A stretch of DNA of 40,029 nt from Enterobacteria phage mEp390: the sequence record NC_019721.1; one strand, 5' to 3'. The position numbers and the translations under genes are program-made. The notes under the pieces are model-generated. The model saw only the letters and a program-made list of their open reading frames with translations, was not told where the DNA came from and searched no databases. Numbering within the stretch: the first letter of the stretch is position 1; every line of letters starts with the position of its first letter. Below are positions 21,664 through 39,643 of this stretch, one piece after another.

Positions 21664-22674
21664 TTACTGCCCCCCAACCACCGGTACTACAGATATTTTG
21701 CGGTTGTATCTTGCAGTCTGCGAAGCATTTTTGTGGCCTGATATTTCTTGTTTCTCATGCAGCGTACCTTCCAAATCAGATATCCCTTTGGCTTTCAGGT
21801 CATGGAAAGTAAAGTCAAATTCGATCTCAGGGAATTTCTCAGCGGCTAACTTTTTCGCCTTCATCCACTGCGCATTAAAAGCATCTCGTGTATATCTCGA
21901 TCCTGATGGCTGGTGAATAACATACATGCTAACCATTCCTTCTTTGAGAGGTAAGGAATCAGCCAAGGAGATTGCACGCCTTAAGCGATCGGTCCATTTT
22001 TTGATTTGACTCACTGCTGTCTTACTTTGCTGAATCATGATTCCTTCATGAAGAAGCTGCGTTTTTTTTAGATCAAGAATATCCCCCTGTCTAGCGCAGC
22101 ATAGATAGGCAACCTCCATAGCGATTTTTACAGGAATAGTTGCAATACTGTACAGAGCATCATATTCGTTATCAAAAACGTAACGAGTCCTGGCCTTTTC
22201 TTTAAACTGCTTTACCCCTTGGCAAGGGTTCATCTTCACTTTTCCACGCTCATATGCCCACCTGAATACCCTCGACATAAACGCTTTTTCTCGGTTCGCC
22301 TGAACTCTGCTCTTAACCCCCCTCTTATCCATATACTTTCTGATGTGCTCCGGCTTAATGTTTTCTGGTTTCATTTTGCCGAAAACGACATTTACCTTTG
22401 AACCATATTTCCGGTAATCCTTTCTGGTTTCTGTTGCCAGATCATGAAAGTCACCAGAGTTAAAAAACTCTTCGCAAAGAGCATGAAAGTTGGAACCAAC
22501 CTTTATATCGTTGATGAAGTTTTCATACGCTGCCCAGACCTGAGACTTTGTGAGATCGAGGTTGCACAATCTCACAGTTCTCCCGTCTGGCGTTCTGAAC
22601 TCATAAGCAGATTTGCCTCGACGCACGCGGGGCGGCATCCAGTTATCTTCTGGGTTTTTGCGGATTCTGGGCAT
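21664..22674 (-). CDS. int: tyrosine-type site-specific integrase
   Basis: 336-aa ORF with C-terminal HxxR and RY catalytic-region motifs (HDLKAKG, ARYNRK); adjacent to att core. Confidence 0.88.
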   Translation of the reverse strand: MPRIRKNPEDNWMPPRVRRGKSAYEFRTPDGRTVRLCNLDLTKSQVWAAYENFINDIKVGSNFHALCEEFFNSGDFHDLATETRKDYRKYGSKVNVVFGKMKPENIKPEHIRKYMDKRGVKSRVQANREKAFMSRVFRWAYERGKVKMNPCQGVKQFKEKARTRYVFDNEYDALYSIATIPVKIAMEVAYLCCARQGDILDLKKTQLLHEGIMIQQSKTAVSQIKKWTDRLRRAISLADSLPLKEGMVSMYVIHQPSGSRYTRDAFNAQWMKAKKLAAEKFPEIEFDFTFHDLKAKGISDLEGTLHEKQEISGHKNASQTARYNRKISVVPVVGGQ

Positions 22675-23270: not shown

Positions 23271-23579
23271 TTAGGCATGGCGTTTTCTCTCTGCCGGTAA
23301 TGGAGGGATATCCATCCACATGATAACCCTCACAATAACACCTTCATTCCCACGCCACTCGTCAGATTCGCAATCGTAGCAGGATGTAATCGCAACGCCG
23401 TAATCTGTCTGGACCAGGTAAATCCCGTTACTTTCAGGTTTAATTTCTGATGCATCATTCCAGATAGGAATCGGGCCATTGCGGTATATCTCCTGAAGCT
23501 CCCGTGCCATGTGGTAGGCGATGTGCCTGCGCCCAAAATCACGAACAACCTCTTTGAGCCTTTCATGGGAAATTGTCAC
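23271..23579 (-). CDS. hypothetical early protein (DUF551-like)
   Basis: 102-aa ORF, overlaps next gene stop; lambdoid early-region family by recollection. Confidence 0.45.
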   Translation of the reverse strand: MTISHERLKEVVRDFGRRHIAYHMARELQEIYRNGPIPIWNDASEIKPESNGIYLVQTDYGVAITSCYDCESDEWRGNEGVIVRVIMWMDIPPLPAERKRHA

Positions 23580-24505
23580 GGCTTCACCTCCTGCTGCGGT
23601 GCTGCTGCAATCATTGCCTTGTGCATGGCGTCGTATCCGTCTTCCTCTACGCGTGCGGCGGCGTCGATCATTGCTCGTGTCGCATCAACCGGCACCAAAA
23701 CCCAACCATCCGGAATCACCGGAGAGTTGCCACCGGCTTTGATGTGCATACGCGGTTCGCCGTCTTTCGGCTCCGGCCACTGGCGCGCCATGTTCTCTTT
23801 CAGCTTTTCTTCCATCGCTGCTGTGATTTCACCGTCACTGATACCGGCGCGGCGCTGGGCATCCCATAGCAGGAACTGCATATCAGCCCACTCGCTGAGG
23901 TCGTCAGGTTCGGCGGCTGCCTCCAGCGCCTCTTTCGAGAGGTGTTTTAGTGGACCTATGGGGCCAACATCACCGAACGTAGCCTGTGACCACTCAGCAT
24001 GGCGCTGACGGATGAGATTGCGTAACTGCAGCGATGATCCAATTTCTTCGGGCAACTTGTAAGCCGTCGTTACAGGTTCGGCACCCTGAAGCATGGCGGA
24101 TCGGCGTGACAGCAGTCTTTTAGCCTCAATGCTGCCTTCTGCCTCAAGCTCTCCTTCAGCCTCTAAGCCACCCTCAAGGTATTCAACCACATCAGCAATC
24201 CACTGCTCCCACGCACCTGGCACTGCCGGCGCTGGCGGGGCGGTGTACAAGGGGCCGCACTTCCAGCCAGCATCTAGTGCTTTTTTTGCCCCAATGCGAT
24301 TGATTCCTTCGTCTGGATTATCCATATCAACATCTCGCTTACCGTCACGCTCCCACATCCACGCCACAGGCTCCGCTGCGAGCGATGCCAGCGCGATACG
24401 CGCCAGTTCGTGAACCTCCCACTCTTCTGCATTTGCCTGACAGTCGCTTCCCTCAGAATTGAACTGAAGGAGGTTTGCTACGCGTTCTCTGGTAATAGTG
24501 CTCAT
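23576..24505 (-). CDS. early protein with C-terminal DUF550 / MazG-like nucleotide pyrophosphohydrolase-like domain
   Basis: 309-aa ORF; segment HAEWSQATFG...EWADMQFLLWDAQRRAG resembles the dATP/dGTP pyrophosphohydrolase domain family. Confidence 0.45.
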   Translation of the reverse strand: MSTITRERVANLLQFNSEGSDCQANAEEWEVHELARIALASLAAEPVAWMWERDGKRDVDMDNPDEGINRIGAKKALDAGWKCGPLYTAPPAPAVPGAWEQWIADVVEYLEGGLEAEGELEAEGSIEAKRLLSRRSAMLQGAEPVTTAYKLPEEIGSSLQLRNLIRQRHAEWSQATFGDVGPIGPLKHLSKEALEAAAEPDDLSEWADMQFLLWDAQRRAGISDGEITAAMEEKLKENMARQWPEPKDGEPRMHIKAGGNSPVIPDGWVLVPVDATRAMIDAAARVEEDGYDAMHKAMIAAAPQQEVKP

Positions 24506-27972: not shown

Positions 27973-28629
27973 TTACAGGTCAGTAACTACTTGTTTTACT
28001 ACACCAACAATTTTGCAGTTACCATTTACTTCCATAACACGATAGTTAGGGTTCAGCGGAACAAGATATTTTAATGGCCCATCAATAACAAACTTTTTGA
28101 GAGTTGCCTCAGCAGAACCGACAATTTGAGCGACAACAATTTTTCCATTTACTTCTTGTGGGCTGCCGTAATCGGGGTCCACCACGACGAATGAGCCTTC
28201 CGGGATACTTGGTGCTCCGTTTGGATTTGTCATCGAGTCACCGCGAACACGTAGTGCAAAACCTTCATCTGATAAGCTGGCCGTAGTGAATATCCATTCG
28301 GAAATATCACCTTCAGTTATTGGAGCTCCACTCTCTGTCCATTCCCCAGCCTGTACCCAAGATAGGATAGGGATTTTCTTTACACCAAACTTCTCAGTCG
28401 GCTTATAAAGAATCTCGTCACAGTCTGGATCACCGTGTCCCGTAATTATCCACTGAGGGTTAGTTTTTAAGGCAGCCGCCAGCCCCTGTAGGTTAGAGCC
28501 ACCAGGTTCATAATCACCAGACTCCCATCCTGTAACCGTTACTCGGTTTACGCCTACCAGCTTGGCGAGAACAGCCTGGGTGAGCTTCAGCTCTTTGCGT
28601 CTTGCGCGGATGCGTTCATTCATTTTCAT
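27973..28629 (-). CDS. cI: CI-like repressor (HTH plus S24 autopeptidase domain)
   Basis: 218-aa ORF with XRE-type HTH (LTQAVLAKLVGVNRVTVTGWE) and S24 motifs (GDSM, later Lys); start codon abuts first operator. Confidence 0.88.
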   Translation of the reverse strand: MKMNERIRARRKELKLTQAVLAKLVGVNRVTVTGWESGDYEPGGSNLQGLAAALKTNPQWIITGHGDPDCDEILYKPTEKFGVKKIPILSWVQAGEWTESGAPITEGDISEWIFTTASLSDEGFALRVRGDSMTNPNGAPSIPEGSFVVVDPDYGSPQEVNGKIVVAQIVGSAEATLKKFVIDGPLKYLVPLNPNYRVMEVNGNCKIVGVVKQVVTDL

Positions 28630-31586: not shown

Positions 31587-31972
31587 AACTGGTGCTCCCA
31601 TTCCCGCCGAGCGTAAACACCTATTGGCGAGCTCCTAACAAGGGGCCGTTAAAAGGCCGCCATCTTATCAGTGAGAAAGGCAGGGCATATCAGAGTGCGG
31701 CCTGCGCAGCGATTATTGAGCAGCTGCGTTGCCTTCCTAAACCATCATCTTCACCAGCTGCGGTGGAGATCCTTCTCTTTCCGCCAGATGCACGCCGCCG
31801 CGACATCGACAACTACAACAAGGCTCTGTTTGACGCGCTTACTCACGCTGGCATCTGGGAGGATGACAGTCAGGTTCAGCGAATGCTGGTGGAGTGGGGC
31901 CCTAAAGTTCCGGGTGGCAGAGTTGAAATAGCGATCACTAAACATCAACCATCTGTAGGGGGAATAGGGTGA
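31583..31972 (+). CDS. rusA: RusA-family Holliday junction resolvase
   Basis: start at ATG after GGGAG RBS (MKLVLPFPPSVNTYW...); RRRDIDN and AGIWEDDSQV motifs match RusA. Confidence 0.8.
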   Translation: MKLVLPFPPSVNTYWRAPNKGPLKGRHLISEKGRAYQSAACAAIIEQLRCLPKPSSSPAAVEILLFPPDARRRDIDNYNKALFDALTHAGIWEDDSQVQRMLVEWGPKVPGGRVEIAITKHQPSVGGIG

Positions 31973-32958
31973 GAGCCATACTGACACCTGAAGTTGCGCC
32001 AATGTCCGGGGTGGTGCTGTTCCGGCCAGGAAATGAGTTGCTGTGGTTGTTTCGTCGCGGCCGGGTGGTTATTGAAACGCCATCTGAAGCTATTCAGCAT
32101 CTGCCATCTGGGCTGATTCCTGAAGCTCACCAGCCACTGACAGATGATGACAGCATGCAGGAACTTTTACTGAACGATCGGGTTATTCTGCGTGCTGGTG
32201 GGCTTAGCAGTCTTGATGCCTGGCTGGAAAGAAAATTCGAATGTCAGTGGCCCCACAATGAATGGCACTCAAAGGACTTTACGGTGATGCGTCACGCACC
32301 CGGAAGCATTCGTCTTTGTTGGGGATGTGATAACCAATTACGTGAACAAACCACTGAAAGACTGGCAGGAATTGCCATGCAGAACCTGTTAAAATGGCTG
32401 CTCGAACGGGTGAATATTATGCTGGGCTTTAGTGCAGACCACACCCTGACGTTACCGGAGTTCTGCTGGTGGATGGTACGTAACGATCTGGCCGACCTTA
32501 TTCCTGAATCAGTGGCCAGTAAAGCCCTCAGGATTAAGCCTGAATCGCACAGCCCAGTAATGCGAGAAAGCGACATTGTTCCGTCATTACCGGCAACTGA
32601 AATCCTCCAGGAGAAAGTTAAGAAGATAGTCTCGGTGAAGGTCGATCCTGAATCACAGGAATCTTTCATGCTGAGGCCAAAGCGTCGCCGCTGGGAGAAC
32701 GATAAGTACACCCGCTGGGTTAAGTCGCAGAAGTGCAGTTGCTGCAATAACCCGGCAGACGATCCCCACCACCTGATAGGCCACGGGCAGGGTGGAATGG
32801 GTACCAAAGCGCACGACCTGTTTGTGATACCGCTGTGCAGAGCGCATCACGATGAGTTGCACGCTGATCCTGTGGCATTTGAAGCGAAGCACGGCGACCA
32901 GTTAACGCTGTTGTTTCGGTTTTTAGATCGTGCGCTGGCAATTGGCGTATTAGCATGA
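31969..32958 (+). CDS. DUF968-like protein with C-terminal Cys/His HNH-like motif
   Basis: 329-aa ORF; C-terminus CSCCNNPADDPHHLIGHGQGG...CRAHHDELH. Confidence 0.55.
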   Translation: MRAILTPEVAPMSGVVLFRPGNELLWLFRRGRVVIETPSEAIQHLPSGLIPEAHQPLTDDDSMQELLLNDRVILRAGGLSSLDAWLERKFECQWPHNEWHSKDFTVMRHAPGSIRLCWGCDNQLREQTTERLAGIAMQNLLKWLLERVNIMLGFSADHTLTLPEFCWWMVRNDLADLIPESVASKALRIKPESHSPVMRESDIVPSLPATEILQEKVKKIVSVKVDPESQESFMLRPKRRRWENDKYTRWVKSQKCSCCNNPADDPHHLIGHGQGGMGTKAHDLFVIPLCRAHHDELHADPVAFEAKHGDQLTLLFRFLDRALAIGVLA

Positions 32959-33338
32959 AAAGTGGAGAAAACATGCGTGATATTCAGATGGTTTTAGAGC
33001 GCTGGGGTGGATGGGCCGCGAGTGATAGTTCCGGAGTCGATTACTCATCAATAGCCGCTGGTTTCAAAGGACTTCTTCCCCCGACAAGCAAATCCCGCCC
33101 GTCATGTACTGATGACGATGCCCTAATTATCGAGGGGTGTTTAGCTCGACTTCAAAAACGCAAGCCCTATGAACATTCGCTTTTGGTTGCACACTATCTC
33201 TATGGCATATCGAAGAGGAAAATAGCGAAAGCACGTAAGAAGGATGAGAAGATAATTAGAATAGAGATACAGATGGCCGAAGGCTTTATCGATGGATGTC
33301 TTTCCATGCTTGACGTTTGTTTAGAAATGGATTGTTAA
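32955..33338 (+). CDS. late-gene antiterminator Q-like protein
   Basis: 127-aa ORF in Q position before the lysis cassette; N-terminus MRDIQMVLERWGGWAA resembles Q-family antiterminators as recalled. Confidence 0.6.
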   Translation: MKSGENMRDIQMVLERWGGWAASDSSGVDYSSIAAGFKGLLPPTSKSRPSCTDDDALIIEGCLARLQKRKPYEHSLLVAHYLYGISKRKIAKARKKDEKIIRIEIQMAEGFIDGCLSMLDVCLEMDC

Positions 33339-33348
33339 ATTAAAGAAG

Positions 33349-33381
33349 CCCCGTAAATTATTGTATGAAATTACGGGGTTT
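33349..33381. terminator. convergent terminator hairpin shared by Q and the TIR-like gene
   Basis: CCCCGTAA-N14-TTACGGGG stem with T-rich flanks on both strands. Confidence 0.5.
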
Positions 33382-33399
33382 ATCAGTTGTCAAATTTCT

Positions 33400-34218
33400 T
33401 TATTCAGGGCTTGGGAAAGCGTTTGGTGGCATAAATTGTTGGAGGGCATATCTTATTTGAAGTCTAATGTAGTCCTCTGGAAAATCAGATCGATCTAAAG
33501 ATGATATAATTTCTTCTTCGTTAAATATGCCTGCCTTAATCATTTCATTTATCTTTGTCTTCATGCGCATTAAAATGTCTGTTCTGTTTATCTGGCGCGG
33601 GTATCGGATATTCGCGGAAATTTCACGAGAGTTGCTTTCTAACTCTCTAACTTGATGGGCTAAAATGCGTGTGTTGTTTAAAATTTCAGCCAACATGTCT
33701 TTATCAGTGCGAGCTGGAACGACCTCGTTAGGTTGATTATTGCTGAGGGCTCTACTAAATCCTTCTTCAAATTGAGGCCAGTAAGTTTCAAAAGCCTTTG
33801 CCAGGATATCATCAGGTAATTTACTTTCATCAAGTAATGAATTAATTGTTTTGAGGAGTTTAAAAACGCTATCTTTATTTTGAGTTGTATGGTTGAACTG
33901 AGAAAGTGGTGCTTCTAGGTCTTCAGGTTTTAAATCAATCAAAAATGTACACACTCTATTATCAGGAAGCCCTTTTGTTAGTGCTCCCGTTTCGAAAAGA
34001 ATCCACGGTTTATTTTTGTTTTCTTGAGTCAAGAAAACTACGCCTATTGAGACGTCCTTTAAAATTTCATTAATTTCGGAGAACCAGATTGCACCACGGT
34101 CAATATCTTTAGTTGAAATCCAAGGTTGTGCTGCTTGAATTACGCACTTCAACCATCCATTAAATTCTTCAGCAACAGCTTGGCTACGGTTTCCAGACCA
34201 ACTTAAGAATATTTTCAC
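33400..34218 (-). CDS. TIR-like domain protein with C-terminal helical domain of unknown function
   Basis: 272-aa ORF, GTG start with AAAGAGGT RBS; N-terminus KIFLSWSG...DIDRG..W....I.E.L....VVFLT...W.LFETGAL fits TIR beta-alpha pattern; markedly AT-rich. Confidence 0.55.
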   Translation of the reverse strand: MKIFLSWSGNRSQAVAEEFNGWLKCVIQAAQPWISTKDIDRGAIWFSEINEILKDVSIGVVFLTQENKNKPWILFETGALTKGLPDNRVCTFLIDLKPEDLEAPLSQFNHTTQNKDSVFKLLKTINSLLDESKLPDDILAKAFETYWPQFEEGFSRALSNNQPNEVVPARTDKDMLAEILNNTRILAHQVRELESNSREISANIRYPRQINRTDILMRMKTKINEMIKAGIFNEEEIISSLDRSDFPEDYIRLQIRYALQQFMPPNAFPSPE

Positions 34219-34362
34219 AAAGACCTCTTTATTTGGATCATTCAGGATAGGAGGTTAACTGTACAATGGAAAAAACAAAAAATCATTAACGCGGTCCGCA
34301 ATTTTTAGTTTACTCTGTTAAGAGTGGTTTCTTCGCCACGGACTTAAAACGAATCCTAAACC

Positions 34363-34415
34363 TCGCTACGGCGGGGTTTTGTCATTTTTGAGGCTACCTG
34401 CGGGTGGCCTTTTTT
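34363..34415 (+). terminator. tandem hairpins upstream of holin, probable tR'-type late terminator
   Basis: CCTCGC-TACG-GCGGGG-TTTT and GGCTACC-TGCG-GGTGGCC-T6, 45 nt before holin start. Confidence 0.55.
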
Positions 34416-34461: not shown

Positions 34462-34857
34462 ATGTCCGATCCTGTTTCTGGCACTACGGTAGCTGCTGGT
34501 GGTCTGATGGGGGCCAGCATGTTCGGCCTGGCAACCGGCATAGATTACGGTGTGGTGTTTGGCGCATTCGCTGGCGCGGTGTTCTACGTCGCTACGGCGG
34601 TTAATATCAGCCGCCTTAAGCTGGTGGGTTACTTCATCACCTCATTCATCTTCGGCGTTATCGGCGCGCCACTGCTTGGCTCTTATTTCTCCAAATGGAC
34701 GGGGTATAGCGACAGGCCACTTGATGCGCTGGGCGCGGTAATAGTTGCCGCAGTGGCTATTAAGCTGCTGACGTTCGTCAACAGTCAGGATTTGGGTAGC
34801 CTGTTTGGAATTCTCTCTCGCTTACGTGGAGGAGGGGCCAGCAATGGTAACAAGTGA
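34462..34857 (+). CDS. holin
   Basis: 131-aa ORF with several hydrophobic helices, first gene after late terminator. Confidence 0.65.
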   Translation: MSDPVSGTTVAAGGLMGASMFGLATGIDYGVVFGAFAGAVFYVATAVNISRLKLVGYFITSFIFGVIGAPLLGSYFSKWTGYSDRPLDALGAVIVAAVAIKLLTFVNSQDLGSLFGILSRLRGGGASNGNK

Positions 34858-35125
34858 TCCGAGTGCGATGGTGAACGCCGTTATTTGCGGCGTAATCGTC
34901 CTTGTCCTGATGTTCTACCAGCGAGGTGGGGCGAGACATCGCCCACTGATCTCGCTGATGGCTTATTTCACGGTTCTGGTATACGCCAGCGTTCCTTTCC
35001 GTTATCTGTTCGGCCTGTACCATGAATCGCACTGGTTTGTGGTGCTGGTGAACGTCCTGATATGCGCTGCCGTTCTCTGGGCTCGGGGAAACGTGGCGCG
35101 TCTGGTTGATGCACTGAGGCACTAA
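34844..35125 (+). CDS. holin-like membrane protein
   Basis: 93-aa product from ATG after GGAGGAGG RBS; two to three hydrophobic segments. Confidence 0.5.
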
Positions 35126-35751
35126 TGAACCAATCACAATTTCAAAAGGCGGCTGGGCTAAGCGCCGAGTTAGCTGCGCGCTGGTTTCAGCCAGTCACCG
35201 ATGCGATGAAAGAATTCGGCATTACCAAGCCGGTAGACCAGGCCATGTTCATTGCGCAGGTTGGGCATGAATCAGCTGGCTTCACTCTCCTGGTGGAGAG
35301 CTTCAATTACCGGATTGCCGCACTAGTTAACTTCATTCGTGCAGGACGCCTTACCGCAGAACAGGCAAACGCGTTAGGCCGCCGCCCTGAAGAACGGACA
35401 TTACCGATTGAGCGCCAGCGAGCCATTGCGAACCTGGTATACAGCAAACGCATGGGTAACAACGCACCCGGCGACGGCTGGTTATACCGTGGGCGTGGGC
35501 TTATCCAGATTACCGGCCTCAACAACTACCGTGATTGTGGAAACGGCCTGAAAGTTGATCTGGTTAAGCAACCTCAGTTGCTCGCTGAAGACGTATACGC
35601 GGCAAGAAGTGCGGCATGGTTCTTTGTCACTAAGGGCTGCCTTAATCATTCTGGCGACCTGATGCGCGTGACGAAGATTATCAACGGCGGAACGAACGGA
35701 CTGGAAGATCGTCGCGCTCGCTTCGGTCAGGCCAAAACAGTACTGGTATGA
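35125..35751 (+). CDS. endolysin, GH19 chitinase-like lysozyme
   Basis: 208-aa ORF with GH19-like motifs ([20 protein letters not shown]) following holin genes. Confidence 0.8.
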
Positions 35752-36723: not shown

Positions 36724-38181
36724 ATGCAGGTCACTATTGATGGTGTCCCATACGCACCTGCCTGCGAAATTTCATCGCGGATTGGCATTGCAATAACGAC
36801 ACACCAGCGCGCCGACGTTCTGAAAAGAGCGCTCGAACAGCACATGAAGCACCTGCCAGCTGGTGCGCTGGTGGTGGTTGTGGATGATGGTTCAAAACCT
36901 GCAGCGGTAGTTCCCCACGGCGTGCAGCTGCTTCGCCATGAAACATCACTCGGCATTGTTGCTTCGAAGAACGCCAGCCTGTCAGCCCTGATGGATGCCG
37001 GGTGCGAGCATCTTTTTCTGTGGGATGATGATGCCTGGCCTATCGCCGATAACTGGCATCTTCCCTACATCGAATCACCCGAGCCACACCTGGCTTACCA
37101 GTTTCTCGATCTTGCTGGCCGCAATAAGCTGAATGACCTTTCGGTGCTTTACCGTGACGATCAGCATGTGGCGTATACCGGGCAGCGCGGCGTTATGCTG
37201 TATTACCACCGTAGTGCCATCGAGAAGGTGGGCGGATTTGATCCGGTATACGGTCGCGGCATGTACGAACACAGCGACCTTGCCCTGCGCATCCATAACG
37301 CCGGAATGACTACGTGGGCTTACGCTGATGCGGCCGGTTCAGAAAAGCTGATTCATTCTCTTGATGAGCATGAGGCTGTAGAGCGTTCCGTACCGAAACC
37401 AGACCGGCAGGCGCTGGTGGAACGTAACGTTAAAATCCACAACGAACGGCGTGATGCCGGGTTTACCGGTTACGTGGAGTATCGACGGCAGCGCGACGTG
37501 GTTATTACTACTCTGCTGACCAGCCAGCCTGACCCGCAGCGCGGTACGAAAATGACCGCCTCTCCTGACATGCTGGCTAAATGGGCGTCCTCGCTTCGGA
37601 ATTGTGGACGTATTGCGCTGGTGGATGAACTACAGACGGCACCGGCAGACGTTGAGCTGTATCGCGTTCCTGACGTGAAGATGAATGTCTACTTCAGGCG
37701 CTGGCTGCATATCTGGCAGCACCTGCGAGATCACCCTGAATACCGGTTCGTCTGGTGTACTGATGGTACCGATGTCGAAATGCTTCGCGCGCCGTGGGAA
37801 GAAATGGAACCCGGTAAGGTGTATGTCGGTTCTGAACCGAAGACCTACGCCGACTCCTGGGCGAAACAGAATCATCCTGAGCGTATCTATAAGGAATTCA
37901 TTGAAGCGCACCGCGGCGATGTGATGCTGAACGCTGGTCTGCTGGGTGGCACCCGCGCTGATGTAATGGCGTTCGCTCACGGCATCATCCGTCTTTACTA
38001 CCGGATAGAGAGTTATCGTTTCTGGAAGAAAGAACAGGCTGGCGCTGCGGTGGGCGATATGATCGCTTTTGGCATTGTTGCTAAATCGTTTGGCGATCGA
38101 ATTGTCACCGGCCCCCGCATCCACACTATTTTTAAGTCCGATGGTGTCGGTAAAGAGTACGCTTTCTGGCGCCATAAATAA
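36724..38181 (+). CDS. glycosyltransferase family 2-like protein with additional C-terminal domain
   Basis: 485-aa ORF; GT-A signatures IAITTHQRADVLKRALEQ, VVVVDDGS, DDD, and VGGFD...YEHSDLALRIHNAG. Confidence 0.6.
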   Translation: MQVTIDGVPYAPACEISSRIGIAITTHQRADVLKRALEQHMKHLPAGALVVVVDDGSKPAAVVPHGVQLLRHETSLGIVASKNASLSALMDAGCEHLFLWDDDAWPIADNWHLPYIESPEPHLAYQFLDLAGRNKLNDLSVLYRDDQHVAYTGQRGVMLYYHRSAIEKVGGFDPVYGRGMYEHSDLALRIHNAGMTTWAYADAAGSEKLIHSLDEHEAVERSVPKPDRQALVERNVKIHNERRDAGFTGYVEYRRQRDVVITTLLTSQPDPQRGTKMTASPDMLAKWASSLRNCGRIALVDELQTAPADVELYRVPDVKMNVYFRRWLHIWQHLRDHPEYRFVWCTDGTDVEMLRAPWEEMEPGKVYVGSEPKTYADSWAKQNHPERIYKEFIEAHRGDVMLNAGLLGGTRADVMAFAHGIIRLYYRIESYRFWKKEQAGAAVGDMIAFGIVAKSFGDRIVTGPRIHTIFKSDGVGKEYAFWRHK

Positions 38182-38221: not shown

Positions 38222-38734
38222 ATGGCCGCAAGAAAGACGATTGAAGAGAGATTTTGGATAAAGGTTGATAAAAAAGGTGAAGATGATTGTTGGTGCTGGT
38301 GTGCCGCAACAGTGAAGGGCGGTAGCGGAGAAAGAAAGTTAACTTATGGGGTTATTGGTACAGATCGAAATGCCTCTGGTAACCCAAAGGTTCTTTTAGC
38401 CCACCGGGTTTCTTGGGAAATGCATAATGGGCCAATACCGGAAGGTAAGTATATAGACCATATCTGTCACAACACCTTATGTGTGAACCCACATCACCTC
38501 CGACTTGTATCACCAAAGCAAAACGCAGAGAACCAATGTGTTGTTGATTCCCGCTCAACATCTGGATATCGAGGCGTATCGTGGAATAAACAAAAAAATA
38601 AATGGCTTGCTTACTGCAATCATGAAGGAAAGCGTTATCACGCTGGGTTCCATGAAACAGCAGAGTTGGCAGCTGAAGCTGCACGTCGAGCCCGAAACAA
38701 GGTGTTTACCCATAATGATGCAGACAGATTTTAA
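38222..38734 (+). CDS. HNH homing endonuclease with AP2-type DNA-binding domain
   Basis: 170-aa ORF; HNH-like Cys/His region (HICHNTLCVNPHHL) and AP2-like GYRGVSWNKQKNKWLAY...GFHETAELAAEA. Confidence 0.75.
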   Translation: MAARKTIEERFWIKVDKKGEDDCWCWCAATVKGGSGERKLTYGVIGTDRNASGNPKVLLAHRVSWEMHNGPIPEGKYIDHICHNTLCVNPHHLRLVSPKQNAENQCVVDSRSTSGYRGVSWNKQKNKWLAYCNHEGKRYHAGFHETAELAAEAARRARNKVFTHNDADRF

Positions 38735-39305
38735 GTTTGTTGTGGTTGGCCATCACTCTCGCTTAAGCCATGCGCAACGTCTTGCCGCGTTGCTGGATGC
38801 TCATCTGCTTATTGATGACGGTGACCACGGCGCGAACTGGAATCATCGGCGCGCTATCGAGTGGGCAGTTGAGCAGCCTTGCCGTGTAGTGGTATTGGAG
38901 GACGACGCGCTGCCAGTACATGGATTCACCGAAAAGGTAACTGACTGGCTGGCTCGTTTCCCTGACGACATGCTGAGCTTTTATCTCGGCACCGGCCGAC
39001 CACCGCAGTATCAGAAAGAGATAGCCGACTGGCTGATTGTTGCAGATAAGTCACGAGCAGACTTCATCACACTTCAGAGGCTGATACACGGGGTCTGCTA
39101 CAGCATCCCACCTCAGCACCTGAACCGTGTTCTGTCTCGATGGCACAGCAGCAAGCCTGCTGATTATGCCGTTGGTGATGCCTATGGCGGCGCTGTGGTT
39201 TATCCGTGTTACTCGCTGGTGGATCACGCCGACATGCAGACGGTTGAGCGTCATCCTGACAACGAGCCGAGGACAGAACGCCGCCGCGCATGGAGACTGG
39301 CATGA
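38715..39305 (+). CDS. putative GT-A fold glycosyltransferase-like protein (GT25-like)
   Basis: start at ATG (MMQTDFK); pattern FVVVGHHSR...DDGDHG...RVVVLEDDALPVHGF resembles GT25/GT-A cores; weak assignment. Confidence 0.4.
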   Translation: MMQTDFKFVVVGHHSRLSHAQRLAALLDAHLLIDDGDHGANWNHRRAIEWAVEQPCRVVVLEDDALPVHGFTEKVTDWLARFPDDMLSFYLGTGRPPQYQKEIADWLIVADKSRADFITLQRLIHGVCYSIPPQHLNRVLSRWHSSKPADYAVGDAYGGAVVYPCYSLVDHADMQTVERHPDNEPRTERRRAWRLA

Positions 39306-39643
39306 ACAAAGAGCCACGCGTATATGGCAGCCGATGGGATAAGGCCCGTCTGCGTTTCCTGCAGCAGCACCCACTATGTGTGATGTGCGAGCAGCAGGGG
39401 CGCATTACCCCGGCAACGGTGGTTGACCATATCGAGCCCCACAAACTCAAAGATGCGCTTAAGTCAGGTAACCCGCTGGCCATATCTAAAGCACAGCTCC
39501 TGTTCTGGAGTAAAGATAACTGGCAGCCACTGTGCAAAGCACATCATGACTCAACGAAACAGAGAATGGAGAAGAGCGGCGCGGTAATAGGCTGTGATGC
39601 CAACGGCTACCCGCTCGATCCTGCGTCTCACTGGAGCACGTAA
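39302..39643 (+). CDS. HNH endonuclease (packaging-associated, HK97 gp74-like position)
   Basis: start MNKEPRV after GGAGA RBS; Cys/His pairs CVMCEQ...HIEPH...CKAHHD; sits just upstream of terminase if the genome is circularised. Confidence 0.75.
   Translation: MNKEPRVYGSRWDKARLRFLQQHPLCVMCEQQGRITPATVVDHIEPHKLKDALKSGNPLAISKAQLLFWSKDNWQPLCKAHHDSTKQRMEKSGAVIGCDANGYPLDPASHWST

Follow-up and report, generated by a model that had tools for sequence, protein, structure and literature searches.

In Escherichia coli C, the three-gene AC1 locus of phage P2_AC1 protects against lambda, LF82_P8 and P2-like phages, and its TIR protein has been proposed to make a nucleotide messenger for the transmembrane (TM) proteins encoded with it and not to deplete NAD+ (Rousset et al. 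2022, PMC9122126). In Bacillus subtilis, the non-TIR domain of SpbK, a protein of the mobile element ICEBs1, binds the portal protein YonE of phage SPbeta, which leads to NAD+ depletion and abortive infection (PMC11984713, PDB 9phb). Single-gene TIR proteins of E. coli give an abortive-infection-like defence for which the TIR active site is required, and their triggers are portal or tail-fibre proteins (Wang et al. 2024, PMC11350192). Here we analysed a TIR-domain gene in the genome of Enterobacteria phage mEp390 (sequence record NC_019721.1; 40,029 nucleotides, the whole of which is called the window below), which lies on the minus strand between the antiterminator gene Q and the first holin gene. 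By sequence comparison it is homologous to the validated AC1 defence component, and each of the two TIR genes occupies a variable cargo slot of a temperate phage.

The gene is a real, intact coding gene under purifying selection. It moves as a single-gene module and stands alone, and evolution is far more rapid in the tail of its product than in the core. We put at roughly 55% the probability that its product is a prophage-borne, single-protein, TIR-dependent abortive-infection defence in which the tail sets specificity, and a relative of the P2-AC1 TIR component.

The TIR gene and its protein

The coding sequence (Table 1) is the longest possible reading frame at its position, and homologues begin at the same M-K-[IV]-F. 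A first-pass annotation of this DNA, made from the letters and a list of open reading frames, had placed a 272-residue minus-strand frame between Q and the tandem hairpins that precede the holin, and the reading-frame list, the families of the neighbouring genes and the terminator scan agree with that placement. The same annotation had described the frame as more AT-rich than its flanks, with a GTG start behind a strong ribosome-binding site. Both points hold: GC content is 0.374 in the gene, 0.527 in the flanks and 0.517 in the whole window, and the ribosome-binding site AAAGAGGT is spaced 4 nt from the GTG, with an AAGAGGT equivalent kept in other TIR loci. The AT-rich island holding the gene is about 0.94 kb long (37% GC versus 53% in the flanks), and the reading-frame list shows nothing in it beside the TIR gene. 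In every host examined the gene has 32–41% GC, irrespective of host GC.

Homologues of the window protein are numerous and uniform in length. The protein matches phrog_13899 over its full length (E 2e-120) and has no NCBIfam match; 1,442 homologues were found in 5.8 billion proteins, nearly all of them 260–280 residues long, and an exhaustive search of representatives at 50% identity gave 11,117 matches at E <= 1e-3, of which 3,003 reach E <= 1e-30. By comparing the core (first 195 codons) between prophage copies, we found a proportion of synonymous differences (pS) of 0.65–0.87, which is saturated, and a proportion of nonsynonymous differences (pN) of 0.09–0.23; the ratio of nonsynonymous to synonymous substitution rates (dN/dS) of the core is ~0.10–0.14 where computable. 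The window copy is the most divergent of its close subfamily (TIR part ~80% identical to the others versus ~90% among those) and its nearest full-length relative (P0002) is 67% identical, and it keeps all invariant residues.

Profile, alignment and model together support the window protein as a TIR protein, as the first-pass annotation had read it. The profile search that it had proposed as a check gives Pfam TIR_2 above threshold, marginally, at 28.7 bits against a gathering cutoff of 28.0 (residues 3–104). A profile of 71 diverse homologues matches the plant TIR 7xoz (E 0.004), with the family motif P-W-I-L-F-E-x-G-A-L aligned on S-S-W-C-L-D-E-L of 7xoz and E76 on the plant catalytic Glu. 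E76 is invariant in alignments of 25 and of 71 sequences, as are W7, S8, S12, S35, G42, N67, W72, G78, L93, P104 and N126. In RefSeq the homologues carry the name 'TIR domain-containing protein'. Structure prediction had been proposed as a check as well, and the AlphaFold2 model is confident (mean pLDDT 89.7, pTM 0.70) and has the five-strand, flavodoxin-like beta/alpha fold of TIR domains (betaA 2–6, alphaA 10–26, betaB 31–34, alphaB 43–55, betaC 56–63, alphaC 71–82, betaD 88–93, betaE 109–111 and helices 115–127 and 136–160), with the predicted catalytic Glu in a W-x-x-x-E context at the start of alphaC. In a Foldseek comparison of the model, SPARTA TIR-APAZ ranks first (E 2.6e-6), and plant TIRs, SpbK, SARM1 and ThsB stand lower in the list.

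The sequence elements on which the first-pass annotation had relied were located at residues 2 (KIFLSWS), 38 (DIDRG), 60 (VVFLT) and 74 (LFETG), and the Glu of the last is E76. Nothing that the annotation had named as a reason to abandon its reading was found, as the TIR fold is predicted and the acidic residue is conserved. Its division of the protein stands in part: the N-terminal 110 residues that it called TIR-like do belong to a TIR domain, and no specific family is recognised in the C-terminal part, which it described as 150 helical residues. However, the TIR fold reaches about residue 160, so the non-TIR remainder is about 110 residues and not 150.

Beyond the TIR domain, the protein continues into a linker and a long helix, whose motif has E, L and R invariant across 25 otherwise unrelated tails; this helix is possibly an oligomerisation or lever element. 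The tail that follows is modelled as three short helices (212–228, 234–240 and 248–262). Among 119 full-length homologues, mean pairwise identity is 0.90 for residues 1–112, 0.69 for residues 113–195 and 0.21 from residue 196 to the end. In pairs with 90–95% core identity the tails are on average 39% identical, and below 30% in one third of the pairs, while a common helix-Gly-helix-helix pattern is retained across tails. The TIR core is near-identical in Enterobacter, Klebsiella, E. coli, Vibrio, Halomonas, Shewanella, Nitrospira and a metagenome-assembled genome (MAG) of Bacteroidota. A conserved effector to which a rapidly evolving specificity module is joined would be expected to look like this, and we propose from these alignments that the tail may be such a specificity or sensor module. 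The tail of one family member is a recognisable helix-turn-helix (HTH_23, E 2e-5), and in model comparison the tail fold is similar to DNA-binding three-helix domains. Two E. coli prophage alleles that are otherwise 99% identical (L013:5000-5815 and L014:5000-5827) differ at their ends (...QRLSESNKKKK versus ...ESNKKRNNLPP, 271 versus 275 residues), apparently through a frameshift at the tail's 3' end, in an A-rich tract.

Distribution of the family and the Q-holin slot

The solo arrangement of the TIR gene is repeated in three metagenomic contigs that belong to this phage type and in Klebsiella pneumoniae and four E. coli prophages, and the same Q-holin slot is used by the gene in E. coli, Klebsiella and Enterobacter prophages. 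Its E. coli form (WP_000862379) is present in 25 of 5,426 complete E. coli genomes. In Halomonas the gene adjoins AbiJ/Abi_C genes, and in Nitrospira it is isolated. Chromosome 2 of Vibrio cholerae holds two identical 1.1-kb TIR cassettes; VCR/attC repeats bound each copy on both sides, and the gene there is therefore a single-gene integron cassette. These cassettes (CP053803.1, L011:5828-9189) are 2.1 kb apart in an array of 16 or more VCR repeats, in which a neighbouring NTP_transf_6 cassette is likewise duplicated (98% identity). A preprint on integron defence (10.1101/2024.07.02.601686) does not mention TIR.

Neighbouring genes were compared to look for a partner. Among 80 IMG/VR loci, DUF968 and Q converge with the TIR gene in 12–13, and AC1-type TM partners, searched by tblastn with the AC1 2TM protein, occur in two only (L077 and L085). 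Clustering of all neighbouring reading frames in the viral loci gave no recurrent partner beyond phage core genes, and no TM or other recurrent partner was seen in the metagenomic, Klebsiella, E. coli, Halomonas, Vibrio and Nitrospira contexts and the viral loci, about 100 in all. An apparently recurrent upstream partner of 124–153 residues in some viral loci was rejected, as the clustering shows no shared family there but phage core. Throughout these contexts the gene is monocistronic and joins a TIR and a non-TIR module with no partner genes. A distant branch (36–47% identity, 285–320 residues) lies on the same strand directly upstream of the genes for the small and large terminase subunits in 13 IMG/VR loci (L043, L059, L060, L067, L068, L071, L072, L074, L075, L087, L089, L090 and L095), and this terminase-upstream site is a second conserved phage position of the family.

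The window represents a temperate phage, complete at ~40 kb, with a lambdoid layout that includes terminase, head, tail and tail-fibre genes. The Q-S slot of lambdoid phages is a classic toxin or moron position, and Shiga toxin genes lie there in Stx phages. Both edges of the slot can be placed in the window: homology to the Q genes of E. coli prophages stops at ~33334, and in an alignment of nine loci from the cargo start to the holin the sequence left of ~34283, the right edge of the cargo, is cargo-specific. The columns of a late-control block to the right of that edge are invariant across the nine loci, whether these carry the TIR gene or not; all nine have a PF06530-type Q, and terminator-like hairpins come after the block in most of the loci besides the window. 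We infer that this block is a Q-dependent late promoter with a Q-utilisation region and a candidate Q-binding element for PF06530-type Q; since it is read as the late promoter, the TIR gene would sit between Q and the late promoter.

Sibling prophages that share this Q, block and terminators carry other cargo, which bears out the earlier description of an opposite-strand insertion between Q and the late control region. In E. coli prophages that lack the TIR gene and have a closely related Q (86% nucleotide identity in one case), other opposite-strand cargo occupies the same slot. In E. coli YJ4 (NZ_AP023230.2, L015:3952-5340) this cargo is a DUF6731 protein of 313 residues with a 147-residue protein, and in E. 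coli 21AR0133 (L016:2694-3467) it is a 257-residue protein without a Pfam or PADLOC match. The YJ4 prophage, whose slot cargo is non-TIR, also encodes downstream of its lysis genes (L015:7256-7428) a RefSeq Acb2/Tad1 domain protein, a sponge for cGAS/TIR signals. The slot therefore behaves as a variable-cargo hotspot; we do not call it a proven defence hotspot because PADLOC matches neither the DUF6731 pair nor the 257-residue protein.

A GC-rich hairpin lies in the gap between the stop codons of Q and the TIR gene and is a candidate bidirectional terminator (plus strand: dG -15.3 kcal/mol, z -3.7; minus strand: dG -12.1, z -2.8), so the convergent hairpin that the first-pass annotation had assigned to both genes is present. 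Its 14-nt loop explains why a consensus terminator scan missed it. Each related locus, five besides the window, has its own GC-rich hairpin, unrelated in sequence, at the junction of the Q and cargo stops (z -2.5 to -3.7 over the loci), and for this reason insulation of the converging units looks like a selected feature of the slot. The scan of the region found four terminators versus 1.5 expected; the two tandem hairpins before the holin fold jointly with dG -31.7 (z -3.8) and are kept in sibling prophages. Upstream of the TIR gene, a motif kept only among the TIR-bearing loci of the nine-locus alignment could, with low confidence, be the -10 element of the gene's own promoter. Between 32800 and 34700 no Rfam family reached its gathering score (the best, istR, had 26 bits versus 45), and the window contains no tRNAs.

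Table 1 Features of the TIR locus and of the surrounding window.
Feature	Position	Strand	Basis or detail
TIR-domain protein, coding sequence, 272 residues	33400..34218	-	Reading-frame list; GTG start 34216-34218, stop codon 33400-33402
Ribosome-binding site AAAGAGGT	34223..34230	-	Direct sequence reading; 4 nt before GTG
TIR domain, residues 1-160	33739..34218	-	AlphaFold2 model
Glu76 codon, predicted catalytic Glu (W72-I-L-F-E76-T-G)	33991..33993	-	Plus-strand TTC, GAA on minus strand
Conserved linker and long helix, residues 161-205	33604..33738	-	Model helix 172-202; motif R..D.IL.EIL..TR.L..R.R.LE
Hypervariable C-terminal three-helix bundle, residues 206-272	33403..33603	-	Model and alignments
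Candidate promoter -10 element for the TIR gene, TTGTACAGT (kept as TGTAAATT in other TIR loci)	34258..34266	-	Motif TGTA[A/C]A[T/G]T, 34258-34265
Hairpin between Q stop and TIR stop, candidate bidirectional terminator	33346..33381	both	GC-rich, 11-bp stem
Late-control block	34290..34339	+	CGCGGTCCGCA 34290-34300; -10-like TACTCT (TAnnnT) 34311-34316; TGTTAAGAGTGG; CGCCAC
Two tandem intrinsic-terminator-like hairpins before holin (tR'-like)	34358-34379, 34390-34411	+	Terminator scan
Antiterminator Q, left edge of cargo slot	32955..33338	+	PF06530, E 1.3e-54
First holin, start of late/lysis operon	34462..34857	+	PF16931 Phage_holin_8, E 6e-39
Second holin	34805-35125		
GH19 endolysin	35125-35751		
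DUF968	31969-32958		
CI-like repressor	27973-28629	-	Replication genes, then RusA, come after
Integrase	21664-22674	-	

Several other genes of the window were noted in passing. An early-region protein of 309 residues (23576-24505, minus strand) matches Pfam dATP-dGTP_PPHyd in its C-terminal part (PF04447, E 2.5e-42), a match that leaves its N-terminal 160 residues without assignment. Between the lysis genes and the window end lie a 485-residue protein (36724-38181, plus strand) with a sub-threshold match to glycosyltransferase family 2, whose relatives in Escherichia and Cronobacter phages are annotated as glycosyltransferases, and a homing-endonuclease-like gene with HNH_3 and AP2 domains (38222-38734, plus strand); a second HNH gene occupies 39290-39643.

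Candidate mode of action and rival explanations

The above analyses favour, on comparative evidence, a probable role in single-gene defence over counter-defence or host mimicry. Orientation, insulation by the hairpin and foreign base composition are most likely those of a moron expressed from the prophage and not of a lytic-cycle gene. What we infer, namely a defence phenotype, NADase chemistry, lysogen expression and the roles of trigger and sensor, could fit together as follows. The TIR gene would be transcribed alone in the lysogen, its promoter diverging from the late control region, with the hairpin at the Q junction insulating it from the convergent Q transcript. Upon infection by another phage, the tail would recognise a phage component, the long helix and TIR domains would oligomerise into an active assembly, and Glu76 would cleave NAD+, so that depletion or an ADPR-derived product aborts the infection; tail binding, oligomerisation and NAD+ cleavage are proposed here by analogy with single-protein TIR defences, and SpbK, the best structural match among these, serves as the working model. 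At induction of the prophage itself, early rightward transcription reading through the hairpin, antisense to the TIR gene, could switch the gene off, although this step is speculation.

Several observations weigh against this proposal. The margin of the Pfam TIR_2 score over its cutoff is small, and a consensus promoter scan found no sigma-70 promoter on the minus strand upstream of the TIR gene. In the tail, dN/dS is ~0.4 where computable, with dS saturated, and does not exceed 1; positive selection is not demonstrable on such saturated synonymous sites, and at this ratio fast drift under weak constraint could explain the variability of the tail without a sensor role. Weak constraint remains a simpler alternative to a role in specificity. 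The closest validated relative needs, or at any rate comes with, two TM proteins and has a proposed messenger, and a solo TIR might for that reason be incomplete. In E. coli, 20 of 32 TIR candidates tested gave no defence (Wang et al., PMC11350192), and the window family might be among those 20. In the literature searched, neither prophage and lambdoid TIR NADases nor the names of the AC1 system led to a characterisation of this family beyond cataloguing, and the terms 'TIR-TM', '2TM_1TM_TIR' and WP_000862379 returned nothing.

The incompleteness just mentioned would be real if the protein were a signal-producing TIR like ThsB, converting NAD+ into a messenger for an effector whose gene lies at another site in the host or prophage and so forming half a system. 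The catalytic Glu is common to signalling and depleting TIRs, the nucleotide messenger suggested by Rousset et al. belongs to the only validated relative, which is encoded with two TM proteins, and an Acb2/Tad1-type sponge near the lysis genes of a sibling E. coli prophage implies that TIR/cGAS signal traffic matters there. Yet about 100 contexts across phyla show no recurrent neighbour, the gene travels as a single-gene integron cassette and is strongly conserved across very different hosts, and there is neither a PADLOC match to ThsB nor a ThsA-like gene nearby. We regard a messenger role as unlikely; depletion or another self-sufficient action is favoured because no partner gene is present, while the AC1 precedent keeps a signalling role alive. 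It is improbable, to a further degree, that the protein defends the cell by hydrolysing or transferring nucleosides, nucleotides or nucleic acid in place of NAD+, in the manner of nucleoside 2-deoxyribosyltransferases (NDT) or of the 2',3'-cNMP synthetase activity of plant TIRs. The marginal TIR_2 score, the one HTH_23 tail and the likeness of the tail fold to DNA-binding three-helix domains could be read in this way, but sequence profiles select TIR families and not NDT, and the W-x-x-x-E motif and the alignment on the plant catalytic Glu suit NAD+-cleaving TIRs.

A benefit to the phage itself has also to be weighed. The gene is carried by a phage, the distant branch stands upstream of terminase on the same strand, where co-expression with late genes is possible, and the TIR and NDT folds are close; the product could thus be a counter-defence or lytic enzyme that breaks down a host immune signal or a nucleotide, or interferes with NAD+ metabolism. 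Both in the window and in every close relative, however, the gene opposes every lytic unit and lies between terminator hairpins, the protein is also known from non-phage settings, namely integron cassettes and chromosomal sites adjoining Abi genes, and the closest validated homologue is a defence component, all of which leaves this explanation with little probability. The slot as a classic toxin position would also suit a virulence factor of lysogenic conversion, similar to Tcp, directed against Toll-like receptor/MyD88 signalling. Near-identical cores are found in Nitrospira, Halomonas, Shewanella, Marinomonas, Pseudoalteromonas and the Bacteroidota MAG, without an animal host, no TM segment or obvious export signal is present, and likeness to MyD88 at such a level is common to all TIR domains; we hold a virulence role to be very improbable.

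Single-gene prophage defence, the reading that we prefer, can be taken further in a form that is bolder and which we ourselves consider doubtful. The family would be a minimal pan-bacterial immune receptor, in which a near-invariant TIR executioner (identity ~90% across Enterobacteria, Nitrospira and Bacteroidota) is joined to a hypervariable three-helix tail of ~60 residues that alone sets phage recognition and is swapped or rapidly diversified between alleles. It would move as a one-gene cartridge in integron arrays and in a dedicated lambdoid slot between Q and the late promoter, where it points towards early transcription and would on that account be silent while its own phage grows lytically. 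If the defence reading is true, few TIR immune genes are smaller or more widespread than this gene (over 3,000 clusters at 50% identity, E <= 1e-30), and its conserved catalytic core with a variable tail of ~60 residues offers a compact model for how a TIR is switched on by a phage cue; if the inference fails, it is another uncharacterised TIR-domain moron. In lambdoid prophages with a PF06530-type Q, insulated opposite-strand cargo has a slot between Q and the late promoter, and the other cargo of this slot could be mined.

Comparison with known systems

In the GenBank phage collection, the only relative of the window protein is the 315-residue TIR protein of P2_AC1 (38% identity over residues 1–186). 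The PADLOC profile PDLC03016, 'TIR-TM', matches the window protein at E 1.6e-57 over positions 1–244 of its 293, and the AC1 protein at 2.7e-118 over positions 1–286. The context of the Glu, W-I-x-F-E-x-G-A-L, is common to the two proteins, whereas their lengths differ (315 and 272 residues) and their C-terminal ends are unrelated. The AC1 TIR gene is preceded by two small genes matching PADLOC 2TM-TIR and 1TM-TIR, and the DefenseFinder name of this system is Rst_2TM_1TM_TIR. The neighbours of the window gene are instead Q and the holin, with neither a 2TM nor a 1TM protein adjacent, and its site is the lambdoid Q-holin slot in place of the P2 hotspot. With both partner genes absent, the window gene falls outside the three-gene P2-AC1 system, and tools now in use would not report it as a system, since the sole model, PADLOC TIR-TM, belongs to one whose other two genes are absent. 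No TM-like segment was found in the window protein, in 120 homologues or in the AC1 TIR protein, and 'TIR-TM' therefore names the system and not the protein. The possibility, raised by that name, that the window copy is a truncated TM-containing protein was rejected, given these TM-free homologues and their matching lengths.

Thoeris ThsB and SPARTA TIR-APAZ are only 13–19% identical to the window protein; PADLOC gives no SPARTA match either, and no ThsA (SIR2/Macro-SLOG), Argonaute or APAZ partner is nearby. For the TIR effectors of CBASS and Pycsar, which are fused to a nucleotide-sensing domain (SAVED, STING or cNMP-binding) and encoded beside a cyclase, Pfam CAP12-PCTIR_TIR reaches only 15 bits against a cutoff of 24.7, with no sensing domain of this kind in the model and no cyclase in the neighbourhood of the gene.

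SpbK is closer in build, as a single protein of ~270 residues that joins a TIR domain to a small non-TIR module on a mobile element. The match is structural only (19% identity, no detectable sequence homology), and SpbK has its sensor at the N-terminus and its TIR domain at the C-terminus, the reverse of the order in the window protein, in a different phylum and on a different type of mobile element. The single-gene TIR proteins of E. coli (TIR-V/VI/IX) resemble the window protein in that only the TIR domain is recognisable, and two of them, TIR-V along with TIR-IX, are described with the opposite domain polarity to that of the window family. Set beside these systems, the mEp390 gene is an uncharacterised and very widespread single-gene relative of a known defence TIR, which is not categorically new and would not surprise a specialist.

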